Positions 1,690 through 16,247 of a stretch of DNA of 64,000 nt are shown here, piece by piece. Source of the stretch: an uncultured Microthrixaceae bacterium. Lineage in GTDB: Bacteria; Actinomycetota; Acidimicrobiia; Acidimicrobiales; DATDAH01. Below the pieces are notes generated by a model. That model was not told where the DNA came from. It was given only the letters and a program-made list of their open reading frames with translations, and searched no databases. A program made the translations under genes and the position numbers. The first letter of the stretch is position 1. Each line of letters starts with the position of its first letter. The DNA is taken from positions 130,550-194,549 of the forward strand of contig CAZWMT010000002.1 of the NCBI GenBank assembly GCA_964635055.1, read 5' to 3'.

Positions 1690-1690
1690 C

Positions 1691-4087
1691 GTGTTGCGAC
1701 GCCGCGGCCCTTCTCGGCGCGACGCAAACCGACCCCTTGGCCCCGAGTCACCCATGAGCGATCCTTCCAGCGCGGTGCGAGACGTCCCCGAGGGGATGCG
1801 CGTCACCAAGCGCGGCAAGCTGAAGAAGCTGCGCAAGCGCAGCCTCCTCTGGCGCCTGCGCCGGGTGTTCTACCTGGCCCTGCTGCTGGTCGTGGCCGGT
1901 GTGGCCGGAGCGTTCTGGGTGCTGTCGCAGGTGAAGCTGCCCGCGGCCAACGACCAACTGCGCCAGACCAGCTACGTCTGCTTCGCCGACCGCCAGGGAA
2001 CCTGCGGGCCCGGCAACTCGGACTTCAAGCTGAAGGGCGACGAGGACCGGGCCGACATCCGCTACGAGGACCTGCCCGACGTCGTGGTCGAGGCCGTGAT
2101 CTCCGCCGAGGACCGCGACTTCTTCCAGCACGGCGGCATCGATCCCGTGGGCATCGCCCGGGCCGTGATGGCCAACGCCAACGACGAGCAGATCACCCAG
2201 GGCGGGTCGACCATCACCCAGCAGTACGTGAAGAACGTCTACCTCACCCGCGAGCGGTCGGTCACCCGCAAGCTGCGCGAGGCCGTCCTGGCGGTACGGG
2301 TGGACGACGAGCTCTCGAAGGAGGAGATCCTCGAGCGCTACCTCAACACGATCTACTTCGGTCGGGGCGCTTACGGCATCCAGGCCGCGTCCCAGGCCTA
2401 CTTCCGCCACGACATCCAGGAGCTCGACGGCCTCGTGCCCGATGCCGAGGGCAACCCGACCACGGCGTTCTCACCCGTCGAGCTCGCCCAGGTGGCCTAC
2501 CTGGCCGGCCTGATCCGCGCCCCCGAGCGGGCCGACGCGCAGCGAAACCCCCGGGTCGCCACCCAGCGCCGCGACTCGGTGCTCGACGCCATGCTCGAAG
2601 AGGGCTACATCGACCAGGCGCAGCGCGACGCCGCCGCGGCCGAGGGCTGGGAGGTGGACGACCTGTTCGCCTCGAAGAACATCGTGTCGCGATCGCCCGC
2701 AACCACCCTGGGGACGGTCCGCGACTGGGAGCACGGCACCGAGTACTTCGCGGAGTACGTGCGCCAGCAGCTCGTCGAGCAGTTCGGCGAGGACCAGGTC
2801 TACGGCGGCGGCCTGCGGGTGTACACGACGCTGTACCCCCAGATCCAGGACGCGGCCTACGAGACGGTCACGGGCACGCTGAACGTCCCGGGTGACCCCG
2901 CGGCGTCGATCGTGGCCCTCGACGACCGGGGCCGGGTGCGGGCCATGATGGGCGGCACCGACTTCGCCAACCAGTCCGTGAACCTGGCCGTCGGTGTGGA
3001 TGGCGGCGGCTCGGGTCGCCAGCCCGGTTCGTCGTTCAAGCCCTTCGCCATCGCCACCGCGCTGCGTCAGGGCTACTCGGCCGAGGCCCGCATCACCGTG
3101 CCTGGCAGCGCCGCGTTCAACCTGGCCGACTACGGCGCCGGTGTCGGCACCTGGCGGGTCTCTGGGGGCGGCGGCACCTACAACATGATGACCGCCCTGC
3201 CGCACTCTTCGAACATGTTCTACGCCACCTTGATGCTCAAGCTCGGGGCCCAGAGCGTCATCGACACGGCCCATCAGATGGGCATCACCGCGCCGCTCGA
3301 CCCCCCGGTGCCGTCGATTGTGCTGGGTGCCGGTGAGGTCTCGCCGCTCGACATGGCCTCGGCGTACTCGACGTTCATGAACCACGGCACCCACTACGAG
3401 CCCCAGGTGATCACCCGGGTGGAGGACAGCGACGGCAACGTGATCTGGCAGCCGCCCGAGACCGGCCAGCAGGTGCTCACGCCCGAGATCGCGGACATCA
3501 CCACCACCGCCATGCGAGGCGTGGTCACGAACGGCACGGCCACGGCGGCGCGACTCGACGACGTCGAGGTCGCGGGCAAGACGGGCACCACCCAGAACAA
3601 CAAGGACGCCTGGTTCGTGGGCTTCCGGTGCAACTTCGTGGCCTCGGTGTGGATGGGTTACCCCGGCTTCGACGGCCAGCCGGTACTGCCCATGAACAGC
3701 GTGCACGGCGAGCGCCAAGAGGGCGGTCGTCTGCCCGCGCGCATGTGGCACGACTTCATGACCCGTGTCGCCGACGAAGGGCTCCTCAACGACAACTGCG
3801 AGCTGGCCGACGTCACGGAGTTCCCCGACGGCAAGGACTTCACCGACGAGGACCTGCCCGGCGGTGCCTTCGGCGGCGGCAGCGGCGGCGGTACCTCCGT
3901 CACCGTGGCGCCCCAGACCCCGGTCGACGTCACCGTGCCGCCGGTGACGTCGCCGCCCGTCACCACGCCACCGGTCACCGACCCGCCGATCACGACGCCG
4001 ACGACCGCCAGCCCGCCGCAGGTTCCGCAGGGGTTGGCCGCCGAATCGGAGCCGGACGAGCGAAGACCGCGAGCCTCGCCGCCGTGA
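1691..4087 (+). CDS. Class A penicillin-binding protein (GT51 transglycosylase + transpeptidase) with Pro/Thr-rich C-terminal tail
   Basis: N-terminal TM. GT51 motifs EDRDFFQHGGID and GGSTITQQYVKN. Transpeptidase motifs SSFKPF (SxxK) and KTGTT. Tail is VTSPPVTTPPVTDPPITTPTT. Start is uncertain (GTG 1691, or ATG 1754 giving MSDPSSAV). Confidence 0.93.
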   Translation: MLRRRGPSRRDANRPLGPESPMSDPSSAVRDVPEGMRVTKRGKLKKLRKRSLLWRLRRVFYLALLLVVAGVAGAFWVLSQVKLPAANDQLRQTSYVCFADRQGTCGPGNSDFKLKGDEDRADIRYEDLPDVVVEAVISAEDRDFFQHGGIDPVGIARAVMANANDEQITQGGSTITQQYVKNVYLTRERSVTRKLREAVLAVRVDDELSKEEILERYLNTIYFGRGAYGIQAASQAYFRHDIQELDGLVPDAEGNPTTAFSPVELAQVAYLAGLIRAPERADAQRNPRVATQRRDSVLDAMLEEGYIDQAQRDAAAAEGWEVDDLFASKNIVSRSPATTLGTVRDWEHGTEYFAEYVRQQLVEQFGEDQVYGGGLRVYTTLYPQIQDAAYETVTGTLNVPGDPAASIVALDDRGRVRAMMGGTDFANQSVNLAVGVDGGGSGRQPGSSFKPFAIATALRQGYSAEARITVPGSAAFNLADYGAGVGTWRVSGGGGTYNMMTALPHSSNMFYATLMLKLGAQSVIDTAHQMGITAPLDPPVPSIVLGAGEVSPLDMASAYSTFMNHGTHYEPQVITRVEDSDGNVIWQPPETGQQVLTPEIADITTTAMRGVVTNGTATAARLDDVEVAGKTGTTQNNKDAWFVGFRCNFVASVWMGYPGFDGQPVLPMNSVHGERQEGGRLPARMWHDFMTRVADEGLLNDNCELADVTEFPDGKDFTDEDLPGGAFGGGSGGGTSVTVAPQTPVDVTVPPVTSPPVTTPPVTDPPITTPTTASPPQVPQGLAAESEPDERRPRASPP

Positions 4088-4275
4088 GCGAGGCCCCGCC
4101 GAACCCCGCCTGCACCTCCTGTGGGCGAGACGACGAGCCGCTGACCGCGGTGCACCGCGTGTACGTCACCCCGGAGGCGTGGGACACGCCGGGCCGGGCC
4201 GACGTGCAGGCCGAGGTCGAGCACTGGTGCTTCGTGTGCCAGACGCACTACCCCCATGAGGTCGTGCCGGGGTAG
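4084..4275 (+). CDS. Small zinc-ribbon-like protein (63 aa) translationally coupled to the PBP gene
   Basis: GTG 4084 overlaps the PBP stop (GTGA). CxxC (CTSC) and CxxC (CFVC) pairs are present. GC3 is very high. No family recognised. Confidence 0.55.
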   Translation: MSEAPPNPACTSCGRDDEPLTAVHRVYVTPEAWDTPGRADVQAEVEHWCFVCQTHYPHEVVPG

Positions 4276-4329
4276 CATTGGGCAACCGCCGGCAGCCGAG
4301 GGGCGCTGGACGGGGAAGGAGGCTCAGAC

Positions 4330-5223
4330 ATGAGCACAGCCAAGATGACCGCTCCTGCTGCACGCGCCCGCACCGCACCGGAGGTGCGCAGGTGCAAGGT
4401 CGCCGACGGTGCCGACCCGCTGGTGATGGTGACGGCGTACGACGCGCCCGGTGCCCGCATCGCCGACGAGGCCGGGGTCGACCTGATCCTGGTCGGGGAC
4501 TCGCTGGCCATGGTGGTGCTGGGCTACGACGACACGTTGCAGGTGACCATCGAGGACATGGCCCACCACACCGCCGCCGTCGCCCGGGCCAAGCCCCGGG
4601 CGCTGATCGTGGGCGACCTGCCGTGGATGAGCTACCACGTGTCGGTCGAGGACACGGTGCGCAACGCCGCCGCCCTGGTCCGGGCCGGCGCCCAGTGCGT
4701 GAAGCTCGAGGGGGGGCGCAAGCGCCTGCCCATGATCGAGGCCATCGTGGCCGCCGAGATCCCGGTGATGGGCCACCTGGGCCTCACCCCGCAGTCGGTC
4801 CACGCCATGGGCGGGTTCAAGGTGCAGGGCAAGGAGCACGAGGCCGCGCTCGAGCTGGTGGCCGAGGCCAAGGCCCTGGCCCACGCGGGCTGCTTCGCCA
4901 TCGTGCTGGAGGGCGTCCCGGACGTGGTGGCCGCCATGGTCACCGACGCGGTGGACGTGCCCACCATCGGCATCGGCGCCGGCGGCCGCTGCGACGGCCA
5001 GGTGCTGGTCTTCCACGACCTGCTCGGCATCGAGGACCGGGTGGCGCCGAAGTTCGTGCGCCGCTACGCATCGCTCAAGGACGACGCCGTCGCGGCCATG
5101 TCGGCCTTCGCCGACGACGTGCGGTCCGGCCGCTTCCCGAGCGACGACGAGAGCTACCACGTCAGCGCGGACGTGGCCGAGACCCTCGAGCTCTACGGCT
5201 CGACGCCTCCCCCCGGCGCCTGA
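4330..5223 (+). CDS. panB: 3-methyl-2-oxobutanoate hydroxymethyltransferase (pantothenate biosynthesis)
   Basis: VMVTAYDAPGARIADEAGVDLILVGDSLAMVVLGYDDT..VKLEGG..GHLGLTPQS are PanB signatures. SD GGAAGGAGG lies upstream of the ATG. Confidence 0.95.
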   Translation: MSTAKMTAPAARARTAPEVRRCKVADGADPLVMVTAYDAPGARIADEAGVDLILVGDSLAMVVLGYDDTLQVTIEDMAHHTAAVARAKPRALIVGDLPWMSYHVSVEDTVRNAAALVRAGAQCVKLEGGRKRLPMIEAIVAAEIPVMGHLGLTPQSVHAMGGFKVQGKEHEAALELVAEAKALAHAGCFAIVLEGVPDVVAAMVTDAVDVPTIGIGAGGRCDGQVLVFHDLLGIEDRVAPKFVRRYASLKDDAVAAMSAFADDVRSGRFPSDDESYHVSADVAETLELYGSTPPPGA

Positions 5224-5235
5224 GGGCCTCGAACT

Positions 5236-5264
5236 CGGGCCGGGCAGCGCAGCTGGCCGGCCCG
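5236..5264 (+). terminator. GC-rich hairpin 13 nt after the panB stop
   Basis: CGGGCCGG (5236-5243) pairs with CCGGCCCG (5257-5264), with inner CAGC/GCTG pairing. No U-tract, as is common in high-GC actinobacteria. Confidence 0.45.
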
Positions 5265-5385
5265 TAAGGTGTACCCTGTGCGTCACGGGAGGGGTCCCGA
5301 CGTCGGGGTACGAGTGCTCGACCCGCTCGACGTCGAGGTCGACGGACGACAGCTCGCGTCTATCGCCCGGGACCGCGGGTAGCTC

Positions 5386-7341
5386 GTGGCGACGGAGGGG
5401 GACGACCCGACGGTCGTCGATGTGCGGGTGCTCGGTGCCCTCGAGGTCGAGGTGGGGGGTGTCGCGCTCGCGCTCCCGTCGAAGGTGGAGCGGTCCGTGT
5501 TCGTGGCCCTCGCACTGCGGCCGGGGCGAACGGTCACCGTGGCGACGCTCGCCGCCGACGTGTGGGGCGACGAGTTGCCTCGCTCCTGGCGCAAGAACAT
5601 CCACGTGCGGATCTCGCGCCTGCGCCAGCGGCTGGGGAGCCAGACCGGGGGGTCCGAGCTGCTGATCACCGCCGATGACGGGTACCGCTTGGCGGTGGAC
5701 CCGGATCGGGTGGACGCCGTGCGGTTCGAACGCCTCCTCACCGAGGGGAGCCGGCTGCTCGCCGACGGCGCGCCGCACGAGGCGGAGCGCGTGCTGGGGG
5801 CGGCCATGACCCTGTGGCGGGGCGAGCCGCTGTCGGAGATCGCCGACACCCCGGTCGGCCAGGTGGAGACCACCCGGCTCACCGAGCTTCGCGACGTGGC
5901 CATCGACGAGCGGCACGAGGCGCTGCTGGCCGTCGGCGGGCACCACACGCTGGTCGCCGCCCTCGAGGGTGGGGTGGCCGCCCACCCCCTCCGGGAGCGG
6001 CGCTGGGCACAGCTGATGCTCGCGCTGTACCGCAGCGGCCGTCAGGGTGAGGCCCTCCGCGCCTACCAGCGGGCGAGAGCGGTGCTCGGCCACCAACTGG
6101 GCATCGAGCCGGGCGCCCAGCTCCGCCGGCTCGAGGCGGCCATCCTCCGCAACGACCCGGCGCTCGACCTCCCCGCCTCGCCGACGCCCGGCGAGATGCC
6201 GTCGGGCCAGATCGTCGACGCGGCACCGGGCGGGCCGCCGGAGGTGGTGGCGTCGCACCTCGAGTGGGCCGAACGTCACCGGGAGGTGGTGGCGTTCATC
6301 GGCCGCGCTGAGGACGTCGAGCGTCTCCACGCGGTCTGGCGGCGGTGCCGGGACGACGAGGTGGTCGGGGTGCTCGCCGTGCGCGGCGACGCAGGGGTGG
6401 GCAAGACCCGGTTGGCGGCGGAGGTCGCGCTGCAGGTCGCCGGCGAGGGCGGGCTGGTGTTGCACGGTCGCTGCGAGCCCGACATCCCGTTGTCGATCCT
6501 CCGGGGCTCGGTCCGTTCCTTCGGGCTGCGCCCGGGGGACGACGCCTCCCTGGGGTCGTCCGCGGTCGTCGACCTCGGCCTGGAGGTCTACGAGGCCATG
6601 AAGGCCGAGGCTCGCCGGCGGCCGGTGTTGCTGGTGATCGACGACGCCCAGTGGGCTGATCCCTACACGGTCATGATGGTGCGGTTCCTGTGCGACCGGC
6701 CGATGCTCGACGATTCCCTCCCCGTCCTGGCGCTCGTGTTGCTCCGCGACGGCTCGTCGTGGCCCGCCGGCCTGGCCGAGGTCTTGAACGAGATGCAGCG
6801 CCACGAGGTCTACCGGACCCTCCACGTCGAGCCTCTCGGACGCGCCGATGCCGAGGCGCTGCTCGCCGAACGACTGGGCGAGGAGGTCGACCCCGACGAG
6901 GTCCGCCCCCTCCTCGACGATCTCGGGGGCATCCCCGAGGTCGTGCTGGCGATGGCGAAGCACCTGCTCGACACGAACCAGCCGCCGACCCTCGGAGGGG
7001 TGGACGTGGTCGGCGTGCCCGATCCCACCCGAGTGGCGATCGGCCGCCAACTCGACGAGTTGTCCGACGAGGTGCTGCGCCTCCTGCGGGCGGCGTCGGT
7101 CCTCGGGAACCGCTTCGCGCTGGTCGATGCCGCCGCCGCGGCAGGGCTCGACGAGGAGGCCGTCCTCGATCAGCTCGACCACGCCATCGAGGCGCGCCTC
7201 GTCGACCCGGTCGCCGGTGACGCCGCCAGTTTCACCTTCGTGACCGGCGCCGTGCGGCGGGTGCTCCTCGACCGGCTCACCGCCGCCCGCCGGGCCCGGA
7301 TCGAGGCGCGCTTGTCCCGGGCAGCGGGCGGCGCGACCTGA
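5386..7341 (+). CDS. AfsR/SARP-family regulator (OmpR-type winged helix + BTAD + P-loop NTPase), copy 1
   Basis: VRVLGALEVEVGG..VWGDELP..NIHVRISRLRQRLG (wHTH). BTAD is WRGEPL..RERRWAQLMLALYRSGRQGEALRAYQRARAVLGHQLGIEPG. Walker A is GDAGVGKTRLAAE. Confidence 0.9.
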   Translation: MATEGDDPTVVDVRVLGALEVEVGGVALALPSKVERSVFVALALRPGRTVTVATLAADVWGDELPRSWRKNIHVRISRLRQRLGSQTGGSELLITADDGYRLAVDPDRVDAVRFERLLTEGSRLLADGAPHEAERVLGAAMTLWRGEPLSEIADTPVGQVETTRLTELRDVAIDERHEALLAVGGHHTLVAALEGGVAAHPLRERRWAQLMLALYRSGRQGEALRAYQRARAVLGHQLGIEPGAQLRRLEAAILRNDPALDLPASPTPGEMPSGQIVDAAPGGPPEVVASHLEWAERHREVVAFIGRAEDVERLHAVWRRCRDDEVVGVLAVRGDAGVGKTRLAAEVALQVAGEGGLVLHGRCEPDIPLSILRGSVRSFGLRPGDDASLGSSAVVDLGLEVYEAMKAEARRRPVLLVIDDAQWADPYTVMMVRFLCDRPMLDDSLPVLALVLLRDGSSWPAGLAEVLNEMQRHEVYRTLHVEPLGRADAEALLAERLGEEVDPDEVRPLLDDLGGIPEVVLAMAKHLLDTNQPPTLGGVDVVGVPDPTRVAIGRQLDELSDEVLRLLRAASVLGNRFALVDAAAAAGLDEEAVLDQLDHAIEARLVDPVAGDAASFTFVTGAVRRVLLDRLTAARRARIEARLSRAAGGAT

Positions 7342-7435
7342 GCGCTCCGCCCGGTCAGGCGGGCCGGTGCTCGGCGGGCCGCTCGGGTGGGCCGAGGCTC
7401 GGTCGGCGCTGACGTACGGCCGGCACTGCCGTCCC

Positions 7436-7466
7436 GATGTCGCCGTGGTTGGGATGTGGTGTCGCC
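7436..7466 (+). promoter_or_regulatory. Direct repeat GATGTCGCC / GGTGTCGCC, 22-nt register, upstream of the LPVTG protein gene
   Basis: GATGTCGCC at 7436-7444 and GGTGTCGCC at 7458-7466. The same nonamer recurs upstream of the two downstream paralogue genes. Confidence 0.35.
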
Positions 7467-7542
7467 ACCATCGGATTGAGTCCGGGGTGTGCCTCGGGCC
7501 GAGCGGTCGGGGTGGACCAACGGAAAGGGCACGGCATCGGCC

Positions 7543-10152
7543 ATGCGACCCCAGCGCCACAGGACGCGTGGCGTGCACCGCGCCGTGCGGTCGCGCGGGT
7601 CCGGGCGTTCGATCGTGTCCATGGGGGGGACCGCGGCGCGGCTCGGCGCGGTCCTCACACTGCTCGGTGTGTTGGCCGCGACGACGGGCGTGTTCGCCGC
7701 CGTCACCGACAGCGCCGAGACCGGCGTGGCCCAGGTCGACTCGTCGGAGGCGCCGCCGCTCGAGCTCGGGTCCGTTGGCGACCGGGTGTGGGCCGACGTC
7801 GACCACGACGGCATCCAGGACCTGGGTGAGCCAGGGGTCGGCGGGGTCACGGTGACCCTGCTCGACGAGTCGGGAGCACCCGTCACCGCCGGCGCACTCG
7901 GCGCGCCGGTGGCGCCGGCCGTCACCGACGCCGCCGGCACCTACGGCTTCGGCGATCTGGCGCCGGCCACCTATCTCGTGCGGTTCTCCGGGTTGCCCAC
8001 CGGTGCCCGTTTCACCTACCACGGCTCGGTCCCCGGCGACGGCACGGATTCCGACGCCGATCCCGACACCGGGGTCACCGCGCCCATCGCCGTGGCCTCC
8101 GGGGAGCGCGACACCGGCGTGGACGCCGGGCTCTGGACGCCGGCACCCGGCCTCTCGCTCGAGAAGCGGGCCCAGGGCGCTGACGCCGACACCGCGCCGG
8201 GACCGTCCCTCCCCATCGGCGACACGGTCACCTTCGACTACCTGGTCACGAACACCGGGAACGAGCCCCTGCGGGACCTCGCGGTGACCGACGACCGGGG
8301 CGTGGAGGTGACCTGCGCACAGACCGAGATCGGCCGGGGTCAGGCGGTCGCCTGCCGCGGTACCGACGATGCGGTCGCCGGTGCCTACACGAACACCGGC
8401 ACCGCGACGGCGAACGGGGCCGACTCGGGCGAGCCCTCGCCACCGGCACGGGATTCGGCCCACTACACCGGCGTGGAGCCGATGCTCTCGCTCGAGAAGT
8501 CGGTCAACGGATCCCCGGCCGACTCGGCATCCGATCCCGTTGCTCTCGACATCGGGCGCCCGGTCACCTTCACGTTCCGGGTGGAGAACCTGGGCACGGA
8601 GCCGCTCGGCGCGATCACGCTCACCGACGAGGCGACGGTGGTGGCCTGCCCGCGTGCCGAGTTGGGCCCTGGGGAATCCATGGAGTGCGACCCGATGGGA
8701 GGGGTGGCGGAGGCGGGCCTGCACACCAACGTGGCGTCGGTCTCCGGTACGGGCACGAGCACGGGGCGGCCTGCGGGTGCGACGGACAGTGCCTCGTACT
8801 TCGGTCAGGATCGCCGGGTCTCGTTCCTGAAGGAGGTGCTCGACCCGGTCTCGGGCGGCTACCTGGACGCCGATGCGGACGCGGGCACCCCGGGGAGCAA
8901 CGACGGCGTGCTGGCGGTCGTTGCCGCGGGCGGGACCGGCCACTTCCGGTTCTCCCTGGCCAACCAGGGGAACGAGCCGTTGCCGGACGCGGTCGTCACC
9001 GATCCCGCCTGCGATGCTCCGCCCGAGCTCGTCAGTGGCGACACCGAACCGGTGGGAAGCCTCGACGTGGGGGAGACCTGGGTGCTCACGTGCGAGCGCC
9101 GTGACCTCACCGCCGGGTTCGTGAACACGGCCTCGGCCAGTGCCGGCGGGCTGACGGCGGTCGAGCGGGCCGGCATCGCCGTCGTCACCGGCACCCCCGA
9201 CGTGCGCATCACCAAGAAGGTGTTCGATCCGCAGACGCAGCAGTTCGGTGACGGCGCCACCATCACCATCGGCGACAGTGCGACGTTCCGCATCCGCGTG
9301 ACGAACACGGGTGAGCGGGGCCTCGCCGATGTCGTGGTGAGCGATCCGCAGGTGTCGGGATGCGGGCGGACCCTCCCGGGGGTGCTGGCACCAGGTGCGA
9401 CCGAGATCTGGACCTGCGAGCGCCACGGTCTCACCTCCGGGTTCACCAATCAGGCGTCGGTCCGCGCCCAGCCCGTCGGCGGCGGTGACCGTGTGCGGGC
9501 GCACGACACCGCCAGCGTCCAGGTGATCGACCCCACGGCCGCAGACCTCGAGCTCACGAAGTCGCTCGTCGGGCAGTCCGGCGGCCTGGCGGTGTGGCGG
9601 TTGCTGGTGACCAACCACGGACCCGGCCCGATCGCCGGGCCGGTGACGGTGCGCGACGACCTACCCGGTGAGCTGACCTACGTCTCGGCCGCCGGCGGCG
9701 GGTTCACCTGCTCCGCCCGTTCGCGCCTCGTGACGTGCGTGCGCGCCGCGGCGCTGGCCGACGGCGCCACCGCCACGATCACGCTCACCACCAGGGTCGT
9801 CGTCACGGCGCCCACCACGATCACCAACCAGGCGCAGGTCTTCGCGCCCTCGGCCGACGCCAGGGTCGACAACAACATCGACACGGCCACCGTGCAGGCC
9901 TCGGGCGGGGGCGGCAACGGGGGGACGATCCCGGGTGATCCCGGGCCGGCTCATGTTCCGGGCCCCCCGGGCGGCGCGGCCGGGCCCGACGGGTTGCCTG
10001 ACCGCGCCGTGCCCCACGCCGGCCCCCTCCCCGTCACGGGTGTGGACGAGGCCGCGCTGGTCGCCCTCGGTATCTGCCTGCTGGGGATCGGCATCGTGTT
10101 GCTCTGGGGCGTGGCCCGCCGGCGTCGGGCCGAGGAGGAGGCAGTGTCCTGA
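7543..10152 (+). CDS. Large surface protein: SipW-type signal peptide, SdrD/Cna-B-like domain, multiple DUF11-like Cys-pair domains, LPVTG cell-wall sorting signal
   Basis: Signal region is LGAVLTLLGVLAATTGVFAAVTDSAETG. GDRVWADVDHDGIQDLGEPGVGGVTVTLLD is SD-repeat B-domain-like. Repeated ~100-aa modules have paired Cys. The terminal DUF11-like module is LELTKSL..WRLLVTNHGPGP. LPVTG (10027-10041) is followed by a TM and RRRRAEEE. Start is ATG 7543 or ATG 7621. Confidence 0.85.
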   Translation: MRPQRHRTRGVHRAVRSRGSGRSIVSMGGTAARLGAVLTLLGVLAATTGVFAAVTDSAETGVAQVDSSEAPPLELGSVGDRVWADVDHDGIQDLGEPGVGGVTVTLLDESGAPVTAGALGAPVAPAVTDAAGTYGFGDLAPATYLVRFSGLPTGARFTYHGSVPGDGTDSDADPDTGVTAPIAVASGERDTGVDAGLWTPAPGLSLEKRAQGADADTAPGPSLPIGDTVTFDYLVTNTGNEPLRDLAVTDDRGVEVTCAQTEIGRGQAVACRGTDDAVAGAYTNTGTATANGADSGEPSPPARDSAHYTGVEPMLSLEKSVNGSPADSASDPVALDIGRPVTFTFRVENLGTEPLGAITLTDEATVVACPRAELGPGESMECDPMGGVAEAGLHTNVASVSGTGTSTGRPAGATDSASYFGQDRRVSFLKEVLDPVSGGYLDADADAGTPGSNDGVLAVVAAGGTGHFRFSLANQGNEPLPDAVVTDPACDAPPELVSGDTEPVGSLDVGETWVLTCERRDLTAGFVNTASASAGGLTAVERAGIAVVTGTPDVRITKKVFDPQTQQFGDGATITIGDSATFRIRVTNTGERGLADVVVSDPQVSGCGRTLPGVLAPGATEIWTCERHGLTSGFTNQASVRAQPVGGGDRVRAHDTASVQVIDPTAADLELTKSLVGQSGGLAVWRLLVTNHGPGPIAGPVTVRDDLPGELTYVSAAGGGFTCSARSRLVTCVRAAALADGATATITLTTRVVVTAPTTITNQAQVFAPSADARVDNNIDTATVQASGGGGNGGTIPGDPGPAHVPGPPGGAAGPDGLPDRAVPHAGPLPVTGVDEAALVALGICLLGIGIVLLWGVARRRRAEEEAVS

Positions 10153-10180
10153 GGAGGCAGTGTCCTGAGGAGGCAGTGCC
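10135..10180 (+). repeat. 16-bp tandem repeat (2.9 copies) spanning the stop codon of the LPVTG gene
   Basis: GAGGAGGCAGTGTCCT at 10135-10150 and 10151-10166, then GAGGAGGCAGTGCC at 10167-10180. The TGA stop (10150-10152) straddles the boundary between copies 1 and 2. Confidence 0.9.
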
Positions 10181-10211
10181 ACGCGGCTGGTCAGGAGACC
10201 TCGGTCGGCGC

Positions 10212-10257
10212 GGTGTCGCCGCCGTTGCGCCGCGGCGACACCACGGGTCGCGACGAT
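10212..10257 (+). promoter_or_regulatory. Conserved upstream element of TasA-like gene 1: GGTGTCGCCGCCGTTG, perfect 11-bp hairpin, GACGAT box
   Basis: GGTGTCGCCGC (10212-10222) pairs with GCGGCGACACC (10232-10242). GACGAT at 10252-10257 lies 40 nt from the motif start, the same spacing as upstream of paralogue 2. Confidence 0.45.
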
Positions 10258-10307
10258 CCCGACGAGGGTGGAGGACCGCTCTCGACCGACCACAGGGAGA
10301 CAAGGCC

Positions 10308-11018
10308 ATGAACCGGAGACGAGGAGCCGCCCTGGTGGCGGTCGGCGTGGTGATGACCATGGCCACGGTGCTCGGCGTGTTCGCCGCACTGACCGACACC
10401 GCCGAGACGGGGACGCTGCAGGCCACGTCGACCGGGCTCTCCGAGTCGACCAACCTGCAGATCGACAACACCGGGGCCATCTCGAGCTCGTCCACGAACT
10501 GCGCCACCCGCACCAACTATGTCGACAACCAGAACGTGGTGCCGCTCAGCTGGACGAACGCCGCCGAAGGCGGCACGTTCACCCGGTTCATCTGCCTCAA
10601 GAACACCGGCGTCGAGGTCGCGCAGATGTCGATCTCCCTTCACGGCGTGACGAACACGGACACCGGCTGCACCGGCGACGAGATCGACTTCGACGCGACG
10701 AGCTGTGGCACAGGCGCCGGTGAGCTGGGCCCGAACCTCCAGGCGGAGATCCAGAAGGTCGGCACCTCCGACACGTCCAACGTGCTCTGCAACGAGGGCG
10801 ACATCTCCGGTGCGGTCAACTCGTACTCGACGATCGTCAACGCGACGACGCCGCGCACCCTCGACACGCTCTCGGCCAACGGGAAGATCCAACCGAACAC
10901 GTACGCCTGCTACCGGATCACGATGGAGTACCCGACGAGCATCTCGGACACCAACGTGCAGAAGGCGCAGTCCGACAAGGTGGAGTGGCAGTTCCAGTTC
11001 CACGCCGAGATCGACTGA
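10308..11018 (+). CDS. Secreted 6-Cys protein with SipW-cognate-type signal peptide (TasA/camelysin-like candidate), paralogue 1
   Basis: MNRRRGAALVAVGVVMTMATVLGVFAALTDTAETG. SD AGGGAGA lies 7 nt upstream of ATG 10308. Motifs shared with paralogue 2: NCAT, CLKNTG, NTDTGCTGDE, SCGTGAGELGP, YACYRI, AQSDKVEWQFQF. Confidence 0.85.
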   Translation: MNRRRGAALVAVGVVMTMATVLGVFAALTDTAETGTLQATSTGLSESTNLQIDNTGAISSSSTNCATRTNYVDNQNVVPLSWTNAAEGGTFTRFICLKNTGVEVAQMSISLHGVTNTDTGCTGDEIDFDATSCGTGAGELGPNLQAEIQKVGTSDTSNVLCNEGDISGAVNSYSTIVNATTPRTLDTLSANGKIQPNTYACYRITMEYPTSISDTNVQKAQSDKVEWQFQFHAEID

Positions 11019-11043
11019 GTCGCTGTCGCCGCTGGTCCGCCGC

Positions 11044-11071
11044 GGGCCGACCCCCTATGGGGGGTCGGCCC
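11044..11071 (+). terminator. Strong hairpin after paralogue 1
   Basis: GGGCCGACCCCC (11044-11055), loop TATG, GGGGGTCGGCCC (11060-11071). Perfect 12-bp stem, 26 nt after the stop. Confidence 0.6.
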
Positions 11072-11093
11072 GTGCTCGCGCCTGTGGCGCGGT

Positions 11094-11160
11094 GGTGTCG
11101 CCCGCAGCGTGGCTGGTGTCGCCGCCGTTGGGTCGGCGCGGCACCAGCCGTTGGGACGAT
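11094..11160 (+). promoter_or_regulatory. Conserved upstream element of TasA-like gene 2: GGTGTCGCC direct repeat (21-nt register), imperfect hairpin, GACGAT box
   Basis: GGTGTCGCC at 11094-11102 and 11115-11123. The 16-mer GGTGTCGCCGCCGTTG is identical to 10212-10227. CTGGTG/CACCAG arms are present. GACGAT is at 11155-11160. Confidence 0.45.
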
Positions 11161-11207
11161 CTGAGCAGGCGGGCGTGGGCCCGTCGTCCACCTTCTGGAG
11201 GGATCCT

Positions 11208-11900
11208 ATGAACCGCAAGAAGAGCATCAGCCTGCTCGTGGTCGGCGTCATCATGACGTTCGCCACGCTGCTGGGTGTCTTTGCCGCACAGTTCGACTCG
11301 GCCTCGACGGGGACGCTGGAGGTGAACTCGAGCTCGCTGACGTCGTCGGTCGACCTCAAGATCGCCGACCAGGTGATCTCGACCAACGCCACGGACTGCG
11401 CGACCATCAGCGCCGCCACCTACCTCGACAACCAGACGGTCCAGCCGCTGGTGTTCGCCAACGCCGATCCGGGCGACGACCTCGTCCGCTACGTCTGCGT
11501 CAAGAACACGGGCGCCGAGACCGCCAACATCAACCTCGACCTGTTCGCGGCCACGAACACCGACACGGCGTGCACGGGTGACGAGTTGAGCTTCGACCCC
11601 GCCAGCTGCGGTACCGGTGCCGGTGAGCTGGGACCGCTGCTCAACGTGGACGTCTTCCGGGTGGGCGCGGCGGCCACCGCCAACGTCGGCTGTGACGAGC
11701 TCCTCTCGCTCTCCGGCGCCACCTACAACAGCGGCATCGTGAACGCCACGGGCAACGCCATCGGCTCCATCGGCGCCGGCGAGTACGCCTGCTACCGGAT
11801 CGACGTCGACTACCCCTCCATCAGCACCAGCGGTGACGAGGAGCAGGAGGCCCAGTCGGACCGGGTCACCTGGAAGTTCCGGTTCAACGGCAACGCCTGA
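11208..11900 (+). CDS. Secreted 6-Cys protein with SipW-cognate-type signal peptide (TasA/camelysin-like candidate), paralogue 2
   Basis: MNRKKSISLLVVGVIMTFATLLGVFAAQFDSASTG. SD GGAGGG lies upstream of ATG 11208. Aligns along its length with paralogue 1. Confidence 0.85.
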   Translation: MNRKKSISLLVVGVIMTFATLLGVFAAQFDSASTGTLEVNSSSLTSSVDLKIADQVISTNATDCATISAATYLDNQTVQPLVFANADPGDDLVRYVCVKNTGAETANINLDLFAATNTDTACTGDELSFDPASCGTGAGELGPLLNVDVFRVGAAATANVGCDELLSLSGATYNSGIVNATGNAIGSIGAGEYACYRIDVDYPSISTSGDEEQEAQSDRVTWKFRFNGNA

Positions 11901-11930
11901 GCCCGTAGCAGTCCGGTAGCAAACCGTGAC

Positions 11931-11969
11931 GGGGTGGGTGCCGGCCGACGATGGCCCTGCACCCACCCC
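11931..11969 (+). terminator. Hairpin between paralogue 2 and the signal peptidase gene (terminator or attenuator candidate)
   Basis: GGGGTGGGTGC (11931-11941) pairs with GCACCCACCCC (11959-11969). Perfect 11-bp stem with a 17-nt loop. Confidence 0.4.
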
Positions 11970-12021
11970 TCCGGGCGTTTCGAGAAGGGTTGGTCGAGAT
12001 GGACGACGGGGGAGGGGTGCG

Positions 12022-12774
12022 ATGAGCGGAGCGGGCGTCACCGACGCCGGGAGGTCCGGGGCCAGGGGTTCGGCGGCGGGAGGCGGCCGCACGGCCCGCC
12101 GTCGCCGCGGTTCGACCGTCACCGGGGGCGTGGCCCTGATCGCCACCATCGTGATGCTGCCGGTGGCCCTGCTCTTCGTCATCGTGTGGTTGGCCGGCTG
12201 GCAGCTCGGCTTCGTGCGCACGGGCTCGATGGATCCCGCGCTCCCCCCGGGATCGATGATCGTGAGCAGCCCCATCTCCGCGGACGAGGTCGAGGTGGGG
12301 ATGGTGATGCAGTTCGTCGATCCCCGTGACAACACCCGGATGATCACCCACCGGGTGATCGAGGTGAACCGCGACGACGCCGGGCAGCTGTCGTTCGTCA
12401 CGAAGGGTGACGCGAACGTCGACCGAGACACCGACGAGGTACCGGCCGAGAACGTGCGGGCCGAGGTCCGCTGGCACGTGAAGCGCCTCGGGTCCCTGCT
12501 CTGGGCGGTGCGGTGGCCGCGGTCACTCGGCTTCACCCTGGTACCGCTGCTGCTGGTCGGACTGGGCCTGCTCCTCGGCCGACGCGACGACGCTCCCACG
12601 GGTGACCGAGCGAGGCGCGCGGGCTCGGTGATCGAGTCGCCCGCGCCGTGCGCCGGCTGTCGCGTCGTCATCGACGAGGTGGACCGCTACTGCCGGCGGT
12701 GTGGCACCCGCCAGCCCGCACACCGGCACCCGGCGACGCTCGAGCGGGGGGAGCGGGCCCCGGTCGACACCTGA
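12022..12774 (+). CDS. Signal peptidase I, ER/archaeal (S26B, SipW-like) type, with extra C-terminal TM and cytoplasmic zinc-ribbon tail
   Basis: TGSMDPALPPGS (catalytic Ser), MITHRVIEV (His), FVTKGDANVDRDTDEV. An N-terminal TM and a second TM (FTLVPLLLVGLGLLL) are present. The tail is CAGC..x10..CRRC (12649-12702). SD GGGGGAGGGG lies upstream of ATG 12022. Confidence 0.88.
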   Translation: MSGAGVTDAGRSGARGSAAGGGRTARRRRGSTVTGGVALIATIVMLPVALLFVIVWLAGWQLGFVRTGSMDPALPPGSMIVSSPISADEVEVGMVMQFVDPRDNTRMITHRVIEVNRDDAGQLSFVTKGDANVDRDTDEVPAENVRAEVRWHVKRLGSLLWAVRWPRSLGFTLVPLLLVGLGLLLGRRDDAPTGDRARRAGSVIESPAPCAGCRVVIDEVDRYCRRCGTRQPAHRHPATLERGERAPVDT

Positions 12775-12898
12775 GGGCCCCCGGCGGAGGGCCGGTGAGC
12801 GTCCTTGGGCCGTGATACCCCCCCTTCACCATGCCGATACCACCTGCTCGCGACGGTGGTCACCGTCCAGTCGGTTCGAAGGGGAGGCAGGAGTCGCT

Positions 12899-14989
12899 GT
12901 GGGGGACGTCTCGCAAGTCCGCATCATGCTGTTGGGGCCGTGCCGCTTGGAGATCGGTGGGGCAGAGGTGGCGATGCCCGCTCGCAAGGAGCGGATGGCG
13001 CTGGCCACGCTGGCCCTCAGGCCCGGTCGCCCGCTCGGGGTCCACGAGCTCGCCGCCGTCCTCTGGGGTGAGCCGTTGCCGGACGCCGCCCGCAAGAGCG
13101 CGCAGGCCGTGGCCTCGCGCCTGCGCCGGCGACTGGCTGCCGCGGCCCCCGGCATCGAAGCCAGGTTCGCCACCCACGACGATGGCTACACCCTCCGCGT
13201 GGAGCCCGCCGACGTCGACGCCTTCTGCTTCGAACGACTGGTCGACGACGCCGACCGAGCCCTCCACGAGGGCAACGCCGAACAGGCGCTCAGCCTGCTC
13301 GGTGAGGCCACGGCCCTGTGGCGGGGTGACCCGGTCCCCGAGCTCGCCGACGCGGCCCTCGGCCAGATCGAGGCGGCCCGCCTCACGGGGCTCCGGGTCC
13401 GTGCCCTCGAGCTGTGGAACGACGCCGAGCTCACCGTCGGGCGGAACGACCCTGTCGTCGGTCGCGCCGAGGGACTGCTGGCCGAGGAGCCGTTCCGCGA
13501 GAACCTGTGGGCGCAGCTGATGCTCGCGCTCTACCGCTCCGGCCGTCAGGCCGAGGCGCTCCGTGCCTATCAGCGAGCCCGTGCCGCACTGGTCGATCAG
13601 CTCGGCATCGAGCCTGGGCCCGAGCTGCGCCGGCTCGAGGCCGCCATCGTGACCCAGGCACGCGAGCTCGACCTCAGGACGCTCGAGCCCTCGGCCCCGG
13701 GACCCGCTCCGCGGGGCACTCCCCCGCCGCCCGCCAGCCGGCGCGATGCCGGCGTGCCGGACTGGGTGACCCGTTCGTGCGTCGGCCCGTTCGTGGACCG
13801 CCAGGTCGAGATCGCCCGCATCGAGTCGGCGTTCGACGCCGCTGCGTCCGGTCTGCGGGTCGTGGGGGTGTCGGGCGAGGACGGCATCGGCAAGTCGCGC
13901 CTCGTCGCCGAGGCCGCTCGCCGCTTCGCCGAAGCCGGCGCGCTCGTCCTCGGCGGGCAGTGCCACACCGACCGGTCGTCGCTGGCCCCCTTCCGCCACC
14001 TGCTCGACCGCTACGCCGCCCAGGTGCCGAGCTCTGCCGACGATTGGACGACCGGCACCGCCGCCACCTTCGGTGCGCTGAGCGCCGTCATGGCCGAGCA
14101 ACTCGGCGGCACCTGCCAGCCCGACCTCGACGACCCGTACACCGCGGCGTCCGGTGTCATGTCGCTGGTCCGCTCCGCCGGTCATCGCCGGCCCACGGTC
14201 CTCGTCCTCGATGACCTGCACCTCGCCGACCCGTCGACCATCGAGGCCGTGCGCCAGCTGGTGGACGGACACCCCAACGTGTCGATGCTCGTCGTTCTCG
14301 TGTTCCGCGGCGCGGACGCACGGTTGCGGCCGGAGCTGCTCGATCTCCTCGACGACCTGCACCGACTACAGGGCTACGAACGCATCCCGCTGGGCCCGCT
14401 GCCGAGCGACGACGGTGCGGCGCTCCTCGCCGAGCTGCTCGGGGGCCCGGTAGGAGCCCACTGGGAGCGGGCGTTCGTGACCCTGAACGAGGAGGTGGGC
14501 GGGAAGCCCCGCTACCTGCTGGCCCTCGCTCGCGCCGTCGCCGATCGCCGCGGGGTGGAGGCGGACGACTGGGTGCCGGCGGGCATCGCCGAGCTGGGTC
14601 TGCCCCGGAGCCTCCATGACCTGATCCGGCGCAACCTACGGGCACTACCGGTGGCGTACCGCGCCGTGCTGGACGCGGCCGCGGTGGTCGACAGCCCGTT
14701 CGGTGTCGGCCTGGTCGCCGATCTGGCCGGCTGCAGCACCGACACCGTCCTGGCGGCGCTCGATTGGCTGCGGGTGGCGGGCTTGGTCGTCCAGTCGGAT
14801 CTCGGCACCGCCGCGTTCAGCTGTGAGGCGGTCCGCCGGGCGGTCCGGGACGACCTTGTGCCGGCGCACCTCCTGCGTCTCCGCGCGCGGCGCTCGGATC
14901 CTCGCACGACCGGCGAGGGCGGCGAGGCCGGCGAAGGCGGCGAGGGCACCCGACCCCTCCACCGCGAGCTCTTCTCGACCCCGACCTGA
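12899..14989 (+). CDS. AfsR/SARP-family regulator (winged helix + BTAD + P-loop NTPase), copy 2
   Basis: VRIMLLGPCRLEIGG..LWGEPLP. BTAD is WRGDPVPEL..RENLWAQLMLALYRSGRQAEALRAYQRARAALVDQLGIEPG. Walker A is GEDGIGKSRLVAEAA. GTG 12899 is preceded by GGGGAGGCAGGAG. Confidence 0.88.
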   Translation: MGDVSQVRIMLLGPCRLEIGGAEVAMPARKERMALATLALRPGRPLGVHELAAVLWGEPLPDAARKSAQAVASRLRRRLAAAAPGIEARFATHDDGYTLRVEPADVDAFCFERLVDDADRALHEGNAEQALSLLGEATALWRGDPVPELADAALGQIEAARLTGLRVRALELWNDAELTVGRNDPVVGRAEGLLAEEPFRENLWAQLMLALYRSGRQAEALRAYQRARAALVDQLGIEPGPELRRLEAAIVTQARELDLRTLEPSAPGPAPRGTPPPPASRRDAGVPDWVTRSCVGPFVDRQVEIARIESAFDAAASGLRVVGVSGEDGIGKSRLVAEAARRFAEAGALVLGGQCHTDRSSLAPFRHLLDRYAAQVPSSADDWTTGTAATFGALSAVMAEQLGGTCQPDLDDPYTAASGVMSLVRSAGHRRPTVLVLDDLHLADPSTIEAVRQLVDGHPNVSMLVVLVFRGADARLRPELLDLLDDLHRLQGYERIPLGPLPSDDGAALLAELLGGPVGAHWERAFVTLNEEVGGKPRYLLALARAVADRRGVEADDWVPAGIAELGLPRSLHDLIRRNLRALPVAYRAVLDAAAVVDSPFGVGLVADLAGCSTDTVLAALDWLRVAGLVVQSDLGTAAFSCEAVRRAVRDDLVPAHLLRLRARRSDPRTTGEGGEAGEGGEGTRPLHRELFSTPT

Positions 14990-15002
14990 GCCGGGCGCCA
15001 CC

Positions 15003-16247
15003 TCAGGGAGGGGCGGCCACGAACAGTGCGACGTGGTCGCCCTGCTTGGCCTGGCTCTCGGCCGTGGGTGACTGGCTGTAGACGGTGCCTGGCGGCCGGT
15101 TGGTCCCCCCGGCGGCGGTCACGTCCACGATGAGGCCCAGGTCGGACAGGATGGCCTCCGCCTCCGCGACCGGCCGGTCGAGGACGCTCGGCACGATGAC
15201 GTCGTCGCCTCCCAGGCTGACCAGGAGCGTGACCTTGTCGCCCGCGTGCAACTCGGTACCGGGCGTGGGGGTCTGCCGGATCACCTGGCCCCTCGTGACC
15301 TCGGCGTTCACCTGGTTCTCGAAACGGGGATGCAGTCCCGCCGCTTCGACGCGGGCGGCGGCGAGTTGCTCGTTCACGCCGGTCACGTCGGGCACGCGGG
15401 CCGGTGCCGGGTCGTCTGGGCGCAAGCCCAGCCGACCGGCCATGAAGAACGCGAAGGTGAGCACCGCGCCGAGGCAGAGGACCCCCAGCAGCAGCTTCCC
15501 GATGAGGGGCAGCGAGGCGATGACCCCCGGCCGATCGCCCACGGGGTCGGCGGGGCCGGTAGCGGTGGCCGGCCGGTGGCCGTTGAGGAGCAGGTCGAGG
15601 TCGGCCTGGGCCCCGGCCGCCGACCCGTAGCCACCCTCGGAGCCCGCGGCGGTCAGCCGGGCGAGCGCGGCGCCGAGTCCGTCGGGCGCCGGCCGATCCC
15701 CGAGCGCCGACGAGATCACCGCGGCCAATGCGTGCAGATCGTCCAGCGGGGCCGGTCCCTCCTCGATGCCGTCCGGTCCGTCGAGGGCGTAGACCCGCCC
15801 GAAGCCGGTCACGATGACGCGTCCATCGTCGTTGAGGAGCACGACCTCGGCGGTCAGGCCCCCGTGGACGACACCGGCCCGGTGGGCGGCGACGAGGACG
15901 TCGGCGACGTCGAGGGCGACCTCGATCACCCGGCGGTCGTCGAGTGACGTCGCGGCCAGGGGTTGGCCGAGGGGCGCCTCGCTGGCGACGTAGTAGCTGC
16001 CTCGTTCGATGCCGGCGCCGAGGACACGACCCACGTTGCCGTGGTCGAGGGCGGCCAACGAGCGCATCGCCCGCTCGAAGCGTTCGCGGGCCCTTGGCGA
16101 CAGGTCACAGGCCTCGGGCCGGAAGACCTCGAGCACGACCTCGGCGTCGGTCGTCAGGTCGGTGGCCCGGAAGATCCATCCCGCATCGCTGACGGCGACC
16201 TGCTCGGCAGGCAGGAACCGCCCGCCGTACTCGACCCGGAGCGCCAC
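15003..16247 (-). CDS. PASTA-domain membrane protein with degenerate (pseudo)kinase domain
   Basis: Kinase-like fold but no GxGxxG. VVLEVF replaces VAIK, HGGLTAEV replaces HRDLKPxN, and GFG replaces DFG. One TM (LLGVLCLGAVLTFAFFMAG) is followed by two PASTA repeats (VPDVTGVNEQLAAARVEAAGL.. and VIVPSVLDRPVAEAEAILSDLGL..). Confidence 0.8.
   Translation of the reverse strand: MALRVEYGGRFLPAEQVAVSDAGWIFRATDLTTDAEVVLEVFRPEACDLSPRARERFERAMRSLAALDHGNVGRVLGAGIERGSYYVASEAPLGQPLAATSLDDRRVIEVALDVADVLVAAHRAGVVHGGLTAEVVLLNDDGRVIVTGFGRVYALDGPDGIEEGPAPLDDLHALAAVISSALGDRPAPDGLGAALARLTAAGSEGGYGSAAGAQADLDLLLNGHRPATATGPADPVGDRPGVIASLPLIGKLLLGVLCLGAVLTFAFFMAGRLGLRPDDPAPARVPDVTGVNEQLAAARVEAAGLHPRFENQVNAEVTRGQVIRQTPTPGTELHAGDKVTLLVSLGGDDVIVPSVLDRPVAEAEAILSDLGLIVDVTAAGGTNRPPGTVYSQSPTAESQAKQGDHVALFVAAPP

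Follow-up and report, generated by a model that had tools for sequence, protein, structure and literature searches.

A candidate TasA-superfamily surface-fibre locus with its own SipW-class signal peptidase and flanking SARP regulators in an uncultured Microthrixaceae bacterium

We analysed a stretch of 64,000 nucleotides (the window) from an uncultured Microthrixaceae bacterium of the Acidimicrobiales (assembly GCA_964635055.1, contig CAZWMT010000002.1), in which six plus-strand genes spanning 5386-14989 lie between panB and a minus-strand PASTA-domain Ser/Thr kinase gene. They encode, in this order, a SARP regulator (SARP1), an LPVTG-anchored protein (A), two paralogous secreted proteins (B and C), a signal peptidase and a second SARP regulator (SARP2). 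We regard it as rather likely that the locus is a surface fibre system of the TasA superfamily which is anchored to the cell, has a peptidase of its own and appears to be controlled by the SARPs. In our view it is very probable that B and C belong to the TasA superfamily and that the adjacent peptidase processes them. The complete picture of a stalk-anchored donor-strand fibre under SARP control is more tentative: none of its steps can be put higher than somewhat probable, and taken jointly they amount to a possibility that we hold with reserve. An earlier note on this DNA had proposed an actinobacterial analogue of tapA-sipW-tasA from Bacillus subtilis, and this proposal is borne out by profile and fold matches to TasA and by the linkage to the peptidase.

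B and C are 49% identical to each other (E 3e-72) and possess six Cys each, all of which are invariant across 46 family members. In total, 17 columns of the family alignment are invariant, among them the six Cys, D30 (in FAALTD), N99, the CTG.E motif and Q221/D223 (in AQSD), and the C-terminal strand AQSD.V.W.F.F is kept across the family. The paralogy, the conserved Cys and the terminal strand had all been noticed earlier from the letters alone. A search of 5.8 billion proteins returned 44 relatives, none of them with a Pfam domain and all unnamed or called “hypothetical”; an exhaustive profile search of 1.84 billion representatives gave 887 clusters at E <= 1e-3, including 193 at E <= 1e-30. 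The hosts in GTDB are all metagenome-assembled genomes (MAGs) and belong to Acidimicrobiia, Gaiellaceae, Solirubrobacterales and Nocardioidaceae, and within Chloroflexota to Dehalococcoidia and Limnocylindrales. For the comparison of gene neighbourhoods we used related loci (numbered with the prefix L) from GTDB genomes (16) and metagenomes (49), plus several reached via exact protein look-up.

The B/C family alignment was compared by hhalign with an alignment of 36 TasA-family (PF12389) proteins. The two families match with a probability of 95.4% (E 1.7e-8) over 188 columns (query 5-223), from the signal peptide through the last strand, so that FAALTD pairs with WAAFND and AQSDkVTWRF.F with YQGDSi...F.fEA. 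Compared to a single TasA sequence the B/C family gave 60% and E 8.6e-5. Structure prediction supports the link to TasA independently. The AlphaFold monomer of B has a predicted local distance difference test (pLDDT) of 80.4 and a predicted template modelling score (pTM) of 0.70, and that of mature C reaches 89.4 and 0.81. For both models the best PDB match found by Foldseek was the TasA fibre 8AUR (E 1e-5 for B, 4.3e-5 for C, probability 1.00), which answers the earlier suggestion to compare the structures with the TasA jelly-roll. Other filaments came next: with either model AbpA bundling pili (7UEG) and the cannula CanA, and with B also the Sulfolobus thread 7PNB. Both monomer models show the first ~23 mature residues as coil, yet these represent the best-conserved part of the family. 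Taken together, profile comparison and models support the view that B and C are remote homologues of TasA, at the level of the superfamily, with a predicted TasA-like jelly-roll.

A, B and C have a signal-peptide/N-terminal motif in common, G-V-F-A/A-x-x-D (the slash marks the predicted cut). It follows the signal-peptide core of each protein, as the earlier note had stated: GVFAAVTDSAETG in A (motif G at nt 7687), GVFAALTDTAETG in B and GVFAAQFDSASTG in C. A regular expression for the motif found exactly three open reading frames (ORFs) in the 64-kb window, namely A, B and C, all close to the peptidase gene, and every family member shows the pattern M-R-R...G-x-F-A-A-[LF]-[TS]-D-[TR]-A-x-T-G. 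The mature N-terminus of TasA is AFND, and from the alignment with it the cut is predicted to fall within G-V-F-A/A, that is after nt 7698 (A), 10385 (B) and 11285 (C). The predicted mature N-termini are AVTD (A), ALTDTAETG (B) and AQFDSASTG (C), each with Asp at position 4, and the composition is acidic (24-27 Asp plus Glu). This resembles AbpX, where an acidic residue at donor-strand position 4 is reported to be critical and the subunits are acidic (bioRxiv 10.64898/2026.01.04.697558). The NCBIfam model TIGR04088, “SipW-dependent-type signal peptide”, was reached by 5 out of 46 family members (best E 4e-4); the window N-termini matched nothing in NCBIfam, TIGR04088 included, even at E <= 10.

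We further report that most family members begin with M-R-R-[SP]-x-L-L, a twin-arginine-like n-region; the corresponding residues in the window are NRRRG (B) and NRKK (C). Haloarchaeal TasA-like “tafi” depend on twin-arginine translocation (Tat), and with these n-regions in mind the route, Sec or Tat, may vary within the family.

The peptidase passes TIGR02228 (archaeal/eukaryote-type signal peptidase I) with 73.1 bits at a cutoff of 51.85 and possesses the catalytic motifs GSMDP (Ser70), THRV (His110) and GDAN, in agreement with its first assignment to S26B. Against the Bacillus SipW equivalog NF046067 it scores 58.5 bits, below the cutoff of 190. Judged by its sequence, it is of the same class as Bacillus SipW and not an orthologue. 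Transmembrane (TM) segments lie at the N- and C-terminal ends, and the second is followed by a cytoplasmic CxxC-x10-CxxC zinc-ribbon tail (nt 12649-12702; weak match to Pfam Zn_ribbon_15). This tail is kept in the Acidimicrobiales orthologue (L002), and the short peptidases of the distant loci L004 and L006 do not have it. In B. subtilis, SipW uses its C-terminal tail for a regulatory function of its own.

The linkage between family and peptidase was counted in the 53 loci with at least 450 bp of downstream DNA. In 51 of them a SipW-type gene is located directly 3' of a B/C-family gene; in the other two, B is followed by C. The neighbourhood, whose conservation the earlier note had wished to see examined, is thus kept as a family-peptidase pair in two phyla. 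This adjacency, together with the confinement of the motif to three window ORFs near the peptidase, shows that the clustering is not due to chance.

Protein A contains the Pfam domains SdrD_B, DUF7507 (four times), DUF11 (three times) and DUF7617 and ends in a sorting signal composed of LPVTG (nt 10027-10041), a hydrophobic stretch and an RRRR tail (LPVTGVDEAALVALGICLLGIGIVLLWGVARRRR), which confirms the SdrD/DUF11-like modules and the anchor read from it previously. The N-terminal strand AVTDSAETGVAQVDSS precedes a Pro-rich linker and then SdrD_B. The hidden Markov model (HMM) of the B/C family matches A at the N-terminus only (E 2e-6), so the strand is present without the TasA-like core. Orthologues with the same architecture, the motif and LPxTG occur in L002 (an Acidimicrobiales MAG) and, frameshifted, in L001. 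A TapA-like role of A is supported by the motif common to A, B and C, since only three such proteins are found in 64 kb; the resemblance to TapA would be a functional one, via the donor-type N-terminus.

The converse paralogue, with the core and an ordinary signal peptide and without the donor motif, follows sipW in L004 and L006 according to the translations. Second family-HMM matches after sipW in L007, L014 and L015 suggest the same core-only arrangement. The core-only paralogue of L001 and L002 bears an LAxTG sorting signal and is located between the stalk gene and B. At the corresponding place the window has a tandem repeat that spans the stop codon of A, and a comparable repeat is present in L023. 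A 22-residue tail stretch of the LAxTG paralogue of L001/L002 matches window 10213-10278 with 73% identity, so the repeat may mark a deletion. From strand-only and groove-only accessory proteins beside subunits that have both strand and groove, we infer the two ends of a donor-strand polymer.

SARP1 and SARP2 are 36% identical over about 680 amino acids and both combine Trans_reg_C, BTAD and AAA_16, in keeping with the paralogous AfsR/SARP regulators that had been placed at both borders. Their best NCBIfam match is AfsR, with a score of 154 that lies far below the equivalog cutoff of 1430. A candidate SARP box was found before each of the genes A, B and C (Table 1). The element is built from 22-bp units, GYGNCRCC-N3-GTYG.., in two or three repeats. 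Only two exact copies of the 15-mer GTGTCGCCGCCGTTG exist in the 64 kb, one 95 bp ahead of the ATG of B and the other 92 bp ahead of that of C. When promoters of A, B and C were aligned across the window, L001 and L023, TGTCGCC..GTTG.G proved invariant in eight out of eight; the element before B is also kept in the latter two. In the more distant L002, GGTTGCC-like heptamers with 11-bp spacing precede the stalk gene and the first subunit gene. The known AfsR box comprises 22 bp with two 11-bp direct repeats overlapping the -35 region and is bound as a side-by-side dimer (PMC10936776). A copy of the box with one mismatch at 31152-31166 (minus strand) was dismissed as a chance occurrence; it lies in apparent minus-strand coding sequence. 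The hairpin located 3' of B suggests that B is transcribed on its own. Its region of 72 nt folds with -53 kcal/mol (z = -5.0; 0 out of 200 shuffles as stable), it is kept in L001 and L023, and the terminator scan missed it because there is no T-run.

Large STAND regulators are found next to the module in 14 out of 26 long loci. Those of the SARP type occur in the window, L001, L002 and L023 (the window clade), in L014 and L015 from Gaiellaceae and in L012 from Limnocylindrales. The LuxR type (AAA_16-TPR-GerE) is present in L004, L016, L020, L046, L053 and L070, and L021 has an AAA_16 protein with a head of unknown type. The LuxR-type regulators, of ~900-1040 amino acids, have a sensor chassis like that of the SARPs and another DNA-binding head. 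They are encoded on the opposite strand upstream in L016, L020, L046, L053 and L070 (directly and divergently in L020, L046 and L053, and 0.8-1.7 kb from the family gene in L016 and L070) and downstream on the same strand in L004. All-vs-all clustering of the neighbours in the 26 long loci revealed as recurrent only the family gene, the peptidase and the STAND regulators, to which the window clade adds the PASTA kinase: a homologue adjoins the locus in L001, L002 and L023 too, and it is a conserved neighbour in this clade only.

The embCAB operon encodes cell-wall arabinosyltransferases. Mycobacterium tuberculosis EmbR is described as regulating the expression of virulence factors and is discussed with this operon (PMC9239209), and the earlier remark that SARPs classically activate antibiotic clusters and not surface structures was overstated in this respect. 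Ser/Thr kinases are paired with such regulators in AfsK-AfsR (PMC10936776) and PknH-EmbR (PMC9239209); by analogy, and as a speculation, the PASTA kinase may feed into the SARPs. Control of A, B and C by the SARPs, as the earlier note saw it, is circumstantially supported by the common conserved element and the recurring STAND regulators. The co-occurrence it had suggested holds for family and peptidase; SARPs make up only part of the STAND-flanked loci, with the LuxR type in others.

The following mechanism is proposed. The local peptidase would cut the precursors of A, B and C at G-V-F-A/A-x-x-D and so expose mature N-termini with Asp4. B would then polymerise by donor-strand complementation, and C would take part as a second or minor subunit. 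Each subunit would lend its unstructured N-terminal ~20 residues to its neighbour, whose β-sheet is thereby completed, and would itself be stabilised by three disulfides. A, in a TapA-like role, could insert its N-terminal strand into the groove of the first subunit and thereby prime the fibre. A sortase encoded elsewhere would use the LPVTG of A, and an immunoglobulin (Ig)-like stalk of ~800 residues would be fixed to the peptidoglycan in this way. A, B and C would be transcribed from three promoters, each with a 22-bp-periodic direct-repeat box to which the flanking AfsR-type SARPs most likely bind, and the PASTA kinase may provide input. Fibre formation, the cleavage site and SARP binding are what we infer here.

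One must keep in mind several observations which weigh against a SARP-controlled fibre system. B and C have no match in Pfam (PF12389 included) or NCBIfam at E <= 0.1 in direct HMM scans, and the TasA model NF046066 is reached by a single member out of 46, at E 0.16 only. Of the HMM comparison with TasA that had been suggested earlier, the direct scans were thus negative and the profile-profile comparison with the PF12389 family positive. The B/C family profile gave no match among PDB sequences at E <= 10. The TM-scores from Foldseek are modest (0.36-0.42) and the root-mean-square deviations large; with a TM-score of ~0.4 the similarity to TasA is one of fold and not a close one. All relatives come from uncultured organisms. 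No sortase domain was found among the called window genes scanned against Pfam, and the cognate sortase must therefore be encoded elsewhere; the donor-less paralogue of the closest relatives is not in the window either. The 8-mer GTGTCGCC of the candidate box is not over-represented window-wide (15 observed, 10.3 expected), a scan of 5200-15200 for sigma-70-like promoters gave 0 sites, and the argument for the box is one of position and conservation, the motif having been noticed post hoc.

Some of these points would be expected if B and C had the TasA fold and did not polymerise. They could be monomeric secreted or wall proteins (adhesins, lectin-like proteins, a spore or cell coat), with A as an independent LPXTG adhesin and only the route of export and processing in common. 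TasA itself crystallises as a monomer, the Clostridium perfringens paralogue BsaB is reported to form dimers only (PMC11580942), and the low TM-scores and the silence of Pfam and NCBIfam would fit as well. The best structural matches, however, are all donor-strand filaments, and the N-terminal ~23 residues are highly conserved although unstructured in the monomer models. Moreover, there are paralogues that lack exactly this segment, and a multi-domain stalk carrying nothing but the donor segment is hard to explain without strand exchange. We consider the monomeric alternative rather unlikely.

As regards the regulation, the SARPs could be adjacent for historical reasons and have other targets, e.g. 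in secondary metabolism, and the element could be bound by another factor or be a remnant of the promoter from the B/C duplication. The promoters of B and C might indeed be alike through gene paralogy, a STAND regulator is missing from the retrieved DNA of about half of the long loci, and neither the lack of 8-mer enrichment nor the lack of predicted -10/-35 sites speaks for an operator. Nevertheless, the element is also found before A, which is not a paralogue of B and C, and the orthologous promoters of L001 and L023 show it without variation. Independent lineages have SARPs beside the module, namely the window clade, Gaiellaceae (L014/L015) and Limnocylindrales (L012), and where no SARP is present a LuxR-type regulator with the same NOD-TPR chassis is often found divergently upstream. 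On balance, a bystander role of the SARPs appears unlikely to us. Quite improbable is the opposite topology, in which the LPVTG protein would sit at the distal tip as an adhesin, attached through its donor strand, and another component, for instance the LAxTG core-only paralogue, would hold the fibre to the cell: SdrD_B and DUF11 are domains as one expects them in adhesins, and the paralogue behind the stalk gene in L001 and L002 could be a wall-proximal acceptor, but the window has no core-only paralogue and its stalk has a complete sorting signal (LPVTG, hydrophobic segment, RRRR).

An isopeptide “exchange-and-lock” of the BsaA kind was considered as well. It was rejected because the family alignment, despite the invariant N99 and E125, contains no invariant Lys.

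The locus resembles tapA-sipW-tasA of B. subtilis (8AUR; TapA strand complementation, PMC10151520) in its dedicated ER/archaeal-type signal peptidase, in a motif common to subunit and accessory protein (A/A-F-N-D there, A/A-L-T-D here), in the jelly-roll subunit and in an accessory protein with a donor strand and without the subunit fold. It differs in that B and C fall outside PF12389 and the NCBIfam TasA model, possess six invariant Cys and CTGDE/GAGEL motifs and form a pair of subunit paralogues. The accessory protein here is a sortase-anchored SdrD_B/DUF11 stalk of ~870 amino acids, set apart from TapA by its domain set. The peptidase carries a zinc-ribbon tail and scores 58.5 bits where 190 would be required, the regulators are SARPs, and the hosts are uncultured Actinomycetota and Chloroflexota.

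Similarly, sipW-bsaA-bsaB-bsaC of C. perfringens unites SipW and two remote TasA paralogues in one operon (PMC11580942). Compared to BsaA, the N-E-K isopeptide lock is not kept and predicted disulfides are in its place, and the vicinity is free of type IV pilus genes. The filaments AbpA, AbpX, Tafi, Sulfolobus threads and cannulae (PMC9245690; bioRxiv 10.64898/2026.01.04.697558) have the same fold by the structural matches. AbpX-type loci further contain a type I signal peptidase (SPase I) and minor subunits, and in bacteria LPXTG or SLH anchors that are predicted to join by strand complementation. AbpX belongs to another sequence family, however, with an SPase of ten TM segments as opposed to the two of the SipW class here, and the accessory DUF5305 is absent from our locus. 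Its regulators are histidine kinases and cyclic di-GMP enzymes, in contrast to the SARP or LAL STAND regulators observed here.

Streptomyces AfsR (PMC10936776) and M. tuberculosis EmbR (PMC9239209) have in common with our SARPs the winged helix-turn-helix (HTH) and BTAD (plus NOD), a nearby Ser/Thr kinase gene and, with the candidate direct-repeat boxes, the 11/22-bp periodicity. They differ in that Pfam finds no TPR in SARP1 and SARP2, in the presumed targets, which here are surface-fibre genes, and in the box sequence (GTGTCGCC..GTTG). The LPXTG sorting signal and an Ig-like stalk on the cell wall are also known from SpaA-type sortase-assembled pili; unlike these, the window has no pilus-specific sortase, B and C are without LPXTG, and the polymerisation proposed is a non-covalent strand exchange.

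The kind of system is not new, since TasA, BsaA and AbpX operons with SPase and LPXTG anchors have already been described, and to this extent the claim of an undescribed system has to be withdrawn. PF12389 homologues are reported from Actinobacteriota and Chloroflexota (PMC9245690). The BsaA/TasA family counts 2,172 proteins, whose operons often include LPxTG proteins, SpaA domains, signal peptidases, sortases and several paralogues (PMC11580942). A TasA cluster with members from Actinomycetota has been described, and AbpX loci are reported to encode their own SPase I together with minor subunits and LPXTG anchors (bioRxiv 10.64898/2026.01.04.697558). For such lineages the earlier descriptions are only bioinformatic, and full-text literature searches brought up no experiments on a locus of this sort from Actinomycetota, just as the earlier note had supposed. 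To our knowledge, the experimental cases of TasA-type donor-strand fibres all come from Bacillota and Archaea. What is new here is a distinct, Cys-rich family outside existing models with an obligate SipW partner, a strand-only sortase-anchored stalk, a zinc-ribbon tail on the peptidase and the association with SARP/LAL regulators together with a concrete candidate operator.

Table 1. Positions of the locus genes, their neighbours and the elements discussed, with LuxR-type regulators of related loci.
Sequence	Feature	Position	Strand	Basis or remark
Window	panB	4330-5223		Pfam Pantoate_transf 4e-107; upstream neighbour
Window	SARP1, AfsR-type, winged HTH + BTAD + P-loop NOD, 651 aa	5386-7341	+	Pfam BTAD 8e-42, AAA_16 3e-18, Trans_reg_C 1e-7
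Window	Candidate SARP box before A	7437-7480	+	ATGTCGCC and GTGTCGCC, 22 bp apart, GTTG/ATCG after each
Window	Gene A, LPVTG-anchored stalk protein	7543-10152	+	domains, signal-peptide motif, sorting signal
Window	Perfect 16-bp tandem repeat, GAGGAGGCAGTGTCCT x2.8	10135-10178	+	spans stop codon of A, TGA in each copy
Window	Candidate SARP box before B	10213-10256	+	GTGTCGCCGCCGTTG, then GCGACACC 22 bp downstream
Window	Gene B, predicted TasA-superfamily subunit, 236 aa, six Cys	10308-11018	+	profile homology, AlphaFold model
Window	Perfect 15-bp G+C-rich hairpin, likely terminator or attenuator	11041-11074	+	just 3' of B stop
Window	Candidate SARP box before C	11095-11160	+	GTGTCGCC at 11095 and 11116, GCGGCACC at 11138
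Window	Gene C, predicted second TasA-superfamily subunit, 230 aa, six Cys	11208-11900	+	identity to B, AlphaFold model
Window	SipW-class (S26B, Ser/His) signal peptidase	12022-12774	+	TIGR02228, catalytic motifs
Window	SARP2, second AfsR-type regulator	12701-14989	+	BTAD 6e-42, AAA_16 6e-20
Window	PASTA-domain Ser/Thr kinase	15003-16247	-	Pfam PASTA 3e-25 + kinase
L004	LuxR-type (LAL/MalT-type) regulator	8899-11568		
L016	LuxR-type (LAL/MalT-type) regulator	4321-7158		
L020	LuxR-type (LAL/MalT-type) regulator	4669-7731		
L046	LuxR-type (LAL/MalT-type) regulator	2170-5175		
L053	LuxR-type (LAL/MalT-type) regulator	635-3583		
L070	LuxR-type (LAL/MalT-type) regulator	3128-6259		

Some starts in Table 1 allow for alternatives. 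The ORF of A is open from 7489 with the likely ATG at 7543 and other possible starts at 7573 and 7621. That of SARP2 is open from 12701, and its true start is probably near 12893; the L023 orthologue was called as 693 amino acids. The ORF 4278-5267, considered as the upstream gene, turned out to be an out-of-frame artefact with an Arg/Gly-rich translation, the true gene being panB. The guanine plus cytosine (G+C) content of the window is high (0.68-0.75). It dips to 0.68 at 10001-12000, where genes B and C are located, compared to 0.72-0.75 on either side; we tentatively attribute this to a composition rich in Thr, Ser and Asn and not to foreign origin.

Downstream of the locus, 17621-22414 (minus strand) encodes a protein of 1597 amino acids in which a Ser/Thr kinase domain is joined to an nSTAND1 NTPase (2e-118) and WD40 propellers; an FHA-LuxR protein comes next at 22336-23037. 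L023 has the large protein downstream of its locus too, and a kinase occupies the equivalent position in L002. Signalling genes of a kind often tied to biofilm control are found at 24168-27777 and 61322-63952 (both plus strand) and comprise a PAS hybrid histidine kinase, a response regulator with HD-GYP-like HD_5 and LuxR, and a PAS-GGDEF-EAL protein; in L001 a homologue of the HD_5-LuxR response regulator lies beside the locus as well. The SipW-type motif is absent from two more putative surface proteins, one at 12-1160 (plus strand) with three SpaA-like prealbumin-fold domains, which runs in from the window edge, and one at 36444-38033 (plus strand) with DUF7507/DUF11 and PD40. Adjacent proteins with RTX calcium-binding nonapeptide repeats are encoded at 53924-55495 and 55473-56876 (minus strand). 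The sole Rfam/ARAGORN match in the window is a tRNA-Ser with anticodon TGA at 35051-35138 (minus strand). The ORF at 38300-42592 (minus strand; 1430 amino acids) has only a prephenate dehydratase domain, at its C-terminal end, and the gene calls there and at 41463-42953 (plus strand) are ambiguous because the ORFs overlap and their codon-position G+C is equally good.

Donor-strand fibres of the TasA type are increasingly seen as a means, common to more than one domain of life, by which biofilm matrix is built. An unannotated family from uncultured soil Actinomycetota and Chloroflexota widens this superfamily by three predicted disulfides, a sortase-anchored stalk in the TapA role and STAND-type regulators, and new Pfam/NCBIfam models for it are justified, which would put an end to the “hypothetical” calls. 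We tentatively put forward, as a bold reading with a limited chance of being right in all its parts, that this may be the first TasA-type donor-strand fibre system of Actinomycetota and Chloroflexota: disulfide-stabilised, spread over ~900 clusters, primed and tethered by a stalk, part of a SARP regulon (with LuxR-type STAND regulators elsewhere) and possibly controlled by a PASTA kinase. With three predicted cleavage sites, three candidate operators and two regulators, the locus provides the material to ask if SARPs control cell-surface architecture outside Streptomyces. If they do, SARPs would for the first time be found in charge of a surface appendage and not of metabolism.

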